A stretch of 54,525 bases of DNA from a virus, in the UHGV virus genome UHGV-0179380; one strand, given 5' to 3'. This document shows positions 11,282-11,320 of the stretch, in pieces. The translations under genes and the position numbers were made by a program. Under the pieces are notes generated by a model, which made no database searches, was not told the origin of the DNA, and saw only the letters and a program-made list of their open reading frames with translations. Each line of letters starts with the position of its first letter. Position 1 is the stretch's first letter.

Positions 11282-11320
11282 CCAAAATGGATTGATCGCG
11301 GTTTATACAATATGTATATT
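11282..11320 (+). promoter_or_regulatory. sigma70-like promoter preceded by CAAAATGGA motif
   Basis: CCAAAATGG 11282-11290, -35 TTGATC 11292-11297, 17-bp spacer, -10 TATATT 11315-11320; near-identical layout to predicted pL. Confidence 0.55.

Follow-up and report, generated by a model that had tools for sequence, protein, structure and literature searches.

A promoter embedded in the tail genes of an mEpimmI-group coliphage shares a plan of operator-like boxes with the early promoter

Backward genes in the late operons of phages are usually assumed to be expressed from the prophage and to benefit the host. The morons of lambdoid phages (a concept of Hendrix and Juhala) carry their own promoter and terminator, lie between late genes and are expressed from the prophage, and the immI region of phage P22 embeds ant, arc and mnt in the late region. 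In lambda, the operator OR2 lies at PRM (at -42) and OR1 at PR, and CI binds with pairwise cooperativity to sites 23-24 bp apart. The C1 repressor of phage P1 has 22 dispersed asymmetric operators with a 17-bp consensus (PMC8546580), and the repressors of mycobacteriophages of the L5 type have more than 20 operators and stoperators, each a 13-mer (PMC9283540). The mEpimmI group consists of Nus-dependent, non-lambdoid temperate coliphages, among which mEp021 has the repressor Rep, an N-like protein (Gp17), three nut sites, an Lpp exclusion gene and a KilAC-like gene (PMC11893012); the paper on mEp021 defines neither operators nor promoters, and the box family and tail-embedded promoter architecture described below are absent from it. 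Here we analyzed the virus genome UHGV-0179380 (54,525 nucleotides, hereafter the window), in which a predicted promoter at 11282-11320 on the plus strand heads a short operon (11367-12219, the cargo operon) that lies inside the minus-strand tail operon, as a preliminary description of the sequence had noted; its neighbors there are tail genes M and L.

We found that this promoter and the early promoter of the same genome (45563-45601, minus strand) resemble each other because both follow one plan of protein-binding boxes. We predict, with a probability of about 0.55, that the boxes at both promoters are operators of the lambda-CI-like repressor Rep. Shared, repressor-linked control of the two promoters, as the preliminary description had suggested, would be the best-supported explanation of their likeness, which reaches the operator-like boxes.

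Promoters were sought by a sigma-70-like consensus scan with scores out of 12, in which the start was predicted from the usual 7-nt distance after the -10 element. The tail-embedded promoter scored 9/12 and the early promoter 10/12, and consensus matches were singly no commoner than in shuffles. Both elements read as first described: CCAAAATGG (11282-11290), an a (11291), TTGATC (11292-11297), a 17-nt spacer and TATATT (11315-11320) on the plus strand, and CAAAATGG (45600-45593), an a (45592), TTGACT (45591-45586), a 17-nt spacer and TATATT (45568-45563) on the minus strand. Their alignment showed that they have in common the exact 13-mer CAAAATGGATTGA, a TTGAnn -35 element, the 17-nt spacer and the TATATT -10 element. 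Within the window the 13-mer occurs at just these two sites, and by our arithmetic a 39-nt segment compared with both strands (109 kb) should give about 0.04 exact 13-mers. The likeness continues past the -10 elements into the leaders (TCAAAcGGAAG..CAGtTAACAAAA compared with TCAAAgGAAGGGCGCAGGTAACAAAA). When the 97 nt of the tail-embedded promoter and leader were aligned locally with every 130-nt tile on both strands of the window, the early promoter was the best non-self match, with a score of 44 (next unrelated locus, 31; background mean 15, standard deviation 5.9, self matches included), and the two promoters were reciprocal best non-self matches.

The promoter at 11282-11320 is, on comparison with 34 unique relatives, a conserved and well-formed sigma-70 promoter core that heads a plus-strand operon ending in a terminator of its own. 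The -35 element is TTGATC in 30 of these relatives and TTGATA in 4, the spacer is 17 nt long in 33 of the 34, and GTATATT, which contains the -10 element, is unchanged in all; counted together, the plus-strand hexamers, 17-nt spacer, ribosome-binding site and ATG are kept in 33-34 of 34. Transcription of the operon is predicted to start near 11327. At the early promoter, TTGACT and the 17-nt spacer are kept in 33 relatives.

The early promoter had been labelled pL, which we consider wrong: it lies downstream of the rep gene and of the rep terminator (45692-45709), and drives a tiny open reading frame (gp16) and then the N-like gene (44924-45214). As a promoter 3' of rep that drives the N-like gene, it is therefore the rightward early promoter with nutR1 in mEp021 nomenclature (PMC11893012). 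The actual leftward promoter has to be located between rep and the replication genes, in the gap upstream of nutL (46527).

Each of the two promoters has a box of a type that we call M, centered at about -41, and a dyad of the form TWTAC-N5-GTATA, centered at about -16 and overlapping the -10 element, with 25 bp between the two. At the early promoter, the upstream box (O_up) is the M box TATACAAAATGGATT at 45590..45604 (minus strand), of which AAAAAGTATACAAAATG is unchanged in 34 unique relatives; the box is identical in 30 of the 31 relatives where it can be scored. The core dyad (O_core, 45565..45579) is TTTAC-GGGGC-GTATA, a perfect match to the pattern 25 bp from O_up, and this distance between centers is 25 in all 31 scorable relatives. 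Of 34 unique relatives, 26 have TTTAC or TATAC as the left arm and 8 have ATCAC, and the GTATA arm does not change. At the tail-embedded promoter, O_up (11279..11293, plus strand) is a degenerate M box, ATACCAAAATGGATT, that aligns to TATACAAAATGGATT and overlaps the first two bases of the -35 element, and it falls into two classes among relatives, CCAAAATGGA and CCAAAACGG, the second with a 1-bp deletion. The O_core of this promoter (11304..11318) is the perfect dyad TATAC-AATAT-GTATA, and has the form T(T/A/G)TAC-N5-GTATA in all 34 unique relatives. A third box (O_down, 11341..11355, plus strand) is an M box, TTAACAAAATGGCGC, in the leader at about +21. Homology with divergent relatives stops here, and matches to E. 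coli prophages end at query position ~174, which is 11353; the GT.AACAAAA of O_down is unchanged even where the flanks and the downstream genes differ.

The pattern of conservation suggests that the dyads are read by a protein. Among 34 unique relatives of each promoter, the blocks without change were TTGAT, TACA.TA.GTATATT, TACTCAAA and GT.AACAAAA at the tail-embedded promoter, and AAAAAGTATACAAAATG, TGACT and AC..GG.GTATATT at the early promoter. In both, the half of the spacer near the -35 element varies and the half near the -10 element is fixed, as are the G that precedes TATA and an AC ten bases upstream. Such a fixed half, G and AC are not expected from sigma-70 contacts alone and would fit a dyad-reading protein. 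The similar spacer starts pointed out earlier are real in the window, but belong to the half that varies among the relatives of each promoter. To call one promoter a near-copy of the other overstates the likeness, as the centers of the boxes near the -10 elements are wholly different (AATAT and GGGGC) and the upstream box of the tail-embedded promoter is degenerate, with an extra C. The same dyad arms around different centers therefore suggest arm recognition and geometry rather than copied sequence. Perfect matches to TWTACNNNNNGTAWA number 3 in the window where 0.22 are expected, and two of these are the O_core dyads of the two promoters. At both promoters the boxes overlap the -35 and -10 elements and are spaced by about 2.3 helical turns, as in operators of the CI type; with respect to a dyad symmetry of about 14-17 bp, the O_core boxes are dyadic and the M boxes are asymmetric beyond CA-N3-TG. 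Pairs of boxes 24-25 bp apart were also found at 16315/16348, 32151/32184, 41487/41511 and 12880-12919, the last of these at the next plus-strand cluster.

The M box belongs to a family that is spread across the genome. Its core 9-mer, ACAAAATGG, occurs 13 times in the window (0.84 expected), and TACAAAATG occurs 15 times (0.73 expected) and is among the most over-represented words of the window. The information profile of 20 aligned M boxes showed an asymmetric core of 12-13 bp, G-T-W-T-A-C-A-A-A-A-T-G-G/T, and no second half-site beyond that core. Almost all M boxes are intergenic, in both orientations and at varied positions. They occur at all four junctions where a plus-strand cluster starts, and others are found close to nutR2, between early genes, at the early promoter itself and in front of rep; the sites recur at matching positions in mEp021 and in the LSU61 prophage. 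In other phages with an L protein of about 71% identity, the corresponding loci contain 0.46 M boxes per 10 kb compared with 3.34 in the family, which makes the motif about seven-fold rarer there, and the gap between M and L in those phages holds a terminator or unrelated inserts and nothing else. Two other descriptions of the box were tried and rejected. An operator of the 434 type (ACAA-N6-TTGT) within the shared 13-mer fits the early promoter alone and not the other M boxes, and readings of M as only an UP element or only a -10 element account for part of the sites but fail at +21, at gene junctions and at the reversed box of the rep promoter.

Several M boxes form part of larger elements. 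The stretches at 16312-16351 and 32148-32187 are near-perfect palindromes, TATACAAAATGG-N-CCATTTTGTATA, that resemble promoter modules placed back to back, with each M box giving the -10 element of the opposite promoter. The first of these is conserved in mEp021 and LSU61, and the second is present in LSU61 and absent from mEp021. A further element, at 41484-41530 on the plus strand, consists of two M boxes spaced by 24 bp and ends in TATATT; it stands between two early genes of the minus strand, resembles a promoter antisense to the early operon, and is kept in both mEp021 and LSU61. The promoter region of the next plus-strand cluster (12880-12921) has the same layout of M box and GTATA as the promoter at 11282-11320.

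The immunity region supports the prediction that Rep reads these boxes. Rep is a 215-aa protein (45715-46362, minus strand) with HTH_3 and Peptidase_S24 domains; it matches lambda CI (3bdn, E 8e-20) and, judged by this match, is a true lambda CI homolog. The M box is the sole 15-19-mer that the early promoter and the rep-replication gap have in common (45607 and 46450, 16/19 identity). That gap holds two M-type boxes (46398..46447), in a region with a 61-bp palindrome, and both are kept in 26 unique relatives. One of these, imm-2 (46398..46412), is centered at about -43 of a putative leaderless rep promoter, and the other, imm-1 (46433..46447), overlaps the -10 element, TAAACT, of a putative leftward promoter. 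Boxes therefore occur both at the early promoter and in the promoter region of the repressor itself, as is the case for CI-type operators, and they are conserved in relatives. The putative rep promoter (46362-46397, minus strand) consists of TTGCAT, 17 nt, TAGGGT, 6 nt and the ATG at 46362, so that the rep mRNA is probably leaderless, and two heteroimmune relatives show the same layout (TATAAT, 6 nt, ATG). By analogy, the layout of the gap mirrors that of lambda, with OR2 at PRM and OR1 at PR.

More distant repressors point in the same direction. Three viral contigs encode repressors that are 38-40% identical to Rep, with an identical N-terminal arm (MKTKWYDLAK) and a similar recognition helix. 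These heteroimmune contigs have the classical divergent cI-cro layout, and the cI-cro gap contains three TATAC-N5-GTAnA boxes, TATACATAAAGTAGA, TATACAGATTGTCTG and TATACATAACGTATA, with a further pair 23 bp apart elsewhere. Because TATAC-type boxes are found in these gaps, the Rep clade appears to read TATAC-type dyads. For a covariation test, genome contigs were searched with patterns from the repressor alignment; 26 stretches matched, none of them encoding a relative. No cro-like gene was recognized next to rep. The first gene of the leftward operon (46669-46923, plus strand), MarR-like in the mEp021 annotation, matches the N-terminal domain of O-like replication initiators, and its product gp14 was rejected as a Cro candidate on that ground; no other candidate DNA-binding protein was identified. 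A plasmid, pRep021, already exists (PMC11893012). With regard to antitermination, nutR2 (37855-37891) and nutL (46527-46563) have in common the boxA GCTCTTTAAAAATC and a hairpin after it, and the early leader has the boxA variant GCACTTTAAAAATC, which together agree with the three nut sites of mEp021.

A CRP-like site, TGTGATCTGCGTCACG, lies upstream of the tail-embedded promoter (11256..11271), with 1 mismatch to TGTGA-N6-TCACA and its center at about -63.5 from the predicted start, or at -62.5 in relatives with the 1-bp deletion; these positions depend on the inferred start. Its GTGAT and TCACG are unchanged in 34 unique relatives, and the bases between them vary. The window contains 7 matches to the CRP core with at most 1 mismatch (1.29 expected), of which 5 stand beside M boxes in regulatory gaps (11256-11271, 4335-4350, 12850-12865, 37952-37967 and 46388-46403). 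These include sites upstream of the Lpp gene and of the next plus-strand cluster, and the site near nutR2 (37952-37967) has kept its half-sites in mEp021 and LSU61 with a variable center. No CRP-like site was found in the equivalent loci of the other phages with an L protein of about 71% identity, compared with 41 in the family.

As the boxes of the cargo promoter look like the putative repressor-binding boxes of the early promoter, the cargo operon is probably off in the lysogen and comes on together with the early genes, unlike a moron that is always on. In such a model, Rep dimers in the lysogen would bind the boxes at -41 and -16 cooperatively, and the leader box at +21 as well, and would occlude RNA polymerase, so that the cargo promoter would be shut together with the early promoter. 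Upon induction or infection, the cargo operon would fire early, alongside the early genes, and cyclic AMP (cAMP)-CRP at the site near -63 would probably boost its promoter. Later, Q-modified late transcription would cross the cargo operon in antisense. It is also possible that the boxes form, on the opposite strand, a divergent extended -10 promoter for tail gene L, for which the candidate is TGGTATGAT (11276..11284, minus strand), the reverse complement of O_up, with a score of 10 and TG at -15/-14.

Several observations weigh against the assignment of these boxes to Rep. The M box is asymmetric, with a right arm of GGnnn and not GTATA and an unchanged A4T center, which is odd for a dimer of the CI type. 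A strict test for symmetric pairs (at most 2 mismatches, 24-25 bp apart) found just 2 pairs genome-wide (P ~0.055), a weak result because the M boxes fail the symmetric pattern. The excess of perfect dyads (3 compared with 0.22) is post hoc, because the pattern was partly derived from these sites, and the conservation of GTATA is partly due to promoter function, because GTATA overlaps the -10 element. The O_up of the tail-embedded promoter is degenerate, with its extra C and with relatives that have T-to-C changes and the 1-bp deletion. The CRP-like site is centered at -63.5, 2 bp away from -61.5, which is canonical for class I. Finally, the sign of regulation is uncertain, because a box at -41 is in the activating position in lambda PRM.

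The most probable alternative, which we nevertheless regard as unlikely, is that a factor other than Rep binds the M boxes, either a family-specific phage protein or a host protein such as a class II-type activator at -41, and that the two promoters are jointly activated, or co-regulated in another way, without dependence on immunity. Such a factor would account for the asymmetry of the box, which differs from classical CI operators, for its occurrence in both orientations and at varied positions, for its place at -41, an activating position, and for the poor -35 elements of several M-box promoters (CTTTCC, TTCGTT, ACTGCC). However, the two regions on which Rep must act have no word in common but the M box, TATAC-type boxes stand in the cI-cro gap of related repressors, and the hexamers of the early promoter are near consensus, so that no activator is needed there. 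Nor was another candidate DNA-binding protein identified, gp14 having the domain of an O-like replication initiator and not being a Cro. Among host factors, the consensus sequences of IHF, Fis, LexA, TyrR, ArcA, MarA and OmpR, compared by eye, showed no consistent fit.

We consider it improbable, and somewhat below the foregoing in rank, that the likeness is purely one of promoter structure, in which a duplicated promoter cassette supplied an A-tract, UP-like element and a -10 context, and the operon is a moron expressed from the prophage, constitutively or as tuned by CRP. The proximal UP subsite is fitted by the AAAA at -43 to -40. The operon has its own promoter and terminator and a lower GC content, and the M-L junction is intact in 16/36 other phages; the reverse complement of M provides TATAnn -10 hexamers in the palindromic modules, and the CRP site suggests control by host physiology. 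On the other hand, an UP element makes no sense for the M boxes at +21, at gene junctions and, reversed, at -43 of the rep promoter. The TAC and TGG that flank the A-tract are as unchanging as the A-tract, both promoters keep the G just before TATA, and the AC ten bases upstream, for no sigma-70 reason, and the motif is absent from the equivalent inserts of other coliphages.

It is quite unlikely that the element mainly serves the minus strand, as an internal promoter and operator module for tail genes L-K-I-J, with plus-strand activity being secondary. With late transcription interrupted by the inserted operon and by its terminator, these genes would need a promoter of this kind, and the reverse complement of O_up does place the extended -10 element TGGTATGAT some 40 nt before the start codon of L. 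Comparable M-linked candidates on the minus strand precede the tail-fiber gene (4289) and gene M (12794), and the O_core palindrome could serve either direction. Against such a principal role, the plus-strand hexamers, 17-nt spacer, ribosome-binding site and ATG are kept in 33-34/34 relatives, and the minus-strand -10 element is not conserved in LSU61 (CATG-AATGCC). A minus-strand role is, moreover, compatible with the plus-strand one, and the two are not mutually exclusive. Chance likeness between two AT-rich, promoter-like stretches, to which the fact that consensus promoter matches are no commoner than in shuffles could be credited, is effectively refuted by an exact shared 13-mer where about 0.04 is expected, by the rank of the early promoter as best non-self alignment in the window, by block-for-block conservation of both sites in 34 unique relatives, and by an enrichment of the motif family of more than 15-fold.

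If Rep does bind these boxes, a broader arrangement could be imagined, which we put forward tentatively and hold to be rather doubtful. Rep might run a genome-wide regulon of about ten conserved, often bidirectional promoter modules built from M and dyad boxes paired at 25 bp, with M-box modules near 4340, 11300, 12880, 16330, 32165, 37950, 41500, 45585 and 46420. The backward operons of the tail region (Lpp, KilAC, ParE-like) might then be early-lytic genes wired to immunity and to cAMP-CRP, with dispersed operators like those of P1 and L5 but in a repressor of the CI/LexA fold, and the KilAC operon might be a second control region similar to immI of P22.

The source phage is, by its sequence, a temperate coliphage of the mEpimmI group. 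Across region 10500-13000, identity is 97.6% to Escherichia phage MagusPhagus and about 87% to mEp021 and to five other mEp phages, and a 381-nt query around 11282-11320 is 99.5% identical to a prophage of E. coli 09-00049. The window runs in the reverse orientation of the mEp021 record. The tail genes lie on its minus strand (J, 4746-9311; L, 10533-11237, with its ATG at 11237 taken as annotated in MagusPhagus and mEp021; M, 12441-12794; tape measure, 13930-16272), and are broken up by short plus-strand clusters at 4467-4715 (Lpp), 11367-12219, ~12950-13800 and 16576-16995. The gene of the central tail fiber, J, contains at 5827-6443 (minus strand) about six tandem 108-bp repeats, which are 36-codon units. 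In the plus-strand cluster that follows the cargo operon, 13136-13390 encodes a protein with a ParE-like toxin domain (Pfam PF24732, 1.2e-7). A search of the whole window against Rfam gave zero matches.

The cargo operon consists of the plus-strand genes g1 (11367-11522, 51 aa), g2 (11535-11885, 116 aa) and g3 (11895-12143, 82 aa). Of the 43 family loci, 40 contain g1, 41 contain g2 and 41 contain g3. Among relatives, g1 is 43-100% identical, g2 61-100% and g3 at least 90%. The product of g3 has a KilAC/ANT domain (Pfam PF03374, 1.8e-6); searches of the cargo genes against Pfam, PHROGs, NCBIfam and PADLOC gave this and PHROG families of unknown function, and nothing more. A hydrophobic open reading frame of 24 aa (MCENYVMEVIIIIIGLLCILLSTL; 12145-12219, plus strand) just before the terminator is found in 7/43 relatives only. 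The operon ends at a hairpin like that of an intrinsic terminator (12220..12247, plus strand), with a 7-pair stem of which 6 pairs are GC, a T-rich tail, a folding energy of -17 kcal/mol and a z of -2.6. The terminator hairpins after the Lpp gene (4715-4741) and after the cargo operon (12219-12245) are 89% complementary copies in opposite orientation. A nut-like leader for the tail-embedded operon was considered and rejected, as 11327-11366 contains no boxA and the leader folds no better than shuffles (z -0.63).

The preliminary description had called this cluster a moron. In favor of that name, the operon has its own promoter and terminator, its GC content is 0.42-0.49 compared with 0.50-0.54 in the flanking tail genes, and M and L are directly adjacent in 16/36 phages with an L protein of about 71% identity. 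The sporadic distribution of a moron was not found, however: with its genes in 40-41 of 43 relatives, the operon is therefore a fixed feature of the family rather than a sporadic moron. The M-L junction is a hot spot for insertion beyond the family, as 20 of those 36 phages have inserts of 170-1300 bp there, and no M boxes, CRP sites or g1-g3 were found in the inserts of these 20 phages.

If the boxes are indeed repressor operators, the backward tail genes would be early lytic functions, which would change the interpretation of their products (the exclusion lipoprotein, the KilAC antirepressor-like protein and the ParE-like toxin), and the boxes and promoters described here would give a common but little-studied group of gut coliphages its first map of operators and promoters. 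The phage of the window and mEp021 have in common Rep, the N-like Gp17, the three nut sites, the Lpp exclusion gene and the KilAC-like gene (PMC11893012). Compared with lambdoid morons, the cargo operon is likewise an independent unit of opposite orientation and lower GC content, located at the M-L junction; it is unlike them in being present in 40-41/43 family members, and whereas morons are expressed from the prophage, the operator-like boxes of the cargo promoter predict silence in the lysogen.

The P22 immI region and the cargo operon are alike as regulated operons with an antirepressor-domain gene (KilAC/ANT) among late structural genes. Unlike immI, the cargo operon has no homologs of Mnt or Arc, its g3 encodes an 82-aa, KilAC-only fragment, and the main repressor and CRP are its predicted regulators. 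The OR and OL regions of lambda resemble the Rep system in having a CI homolog with an S24 cleavage domain and boxes that overlap the -35 and -10 elements of the early promoter. Operator sites are 23-24 bp apart in lambda and 24-25 bp apart in the Rep system, and OR2 at -42 of PRM has its counterpart in a box at about -43 of the probably leaderless repressor promoter. In contrast to lambda, rep precedes the early promoter on one and the same strand, with a terminator between them, no cro was recognized, the main box is asymmetric, and boxes occur at about ten places that include the tail-gene region and not the immunity region alone. This dispersal, as predicted for Rep, is like that of P1 C1 and the L5-type repressors, in which one immunity repressor has many asymmetric sites at promoters and in short intergenic gaps. 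Those repressors have an unrelated fold and bind as monomers, whereas Rep is CI/LexA-like, and the sites of L5 follow the direction of transcription, whereas M boxes point either way and often form 25-bp pairs. If the prediction is correct, Rep would be a CI-type repressor whose operators are dispersed, a strategy that until now has been known in unrelated repressors such as P1 C1 and L5 gp71.

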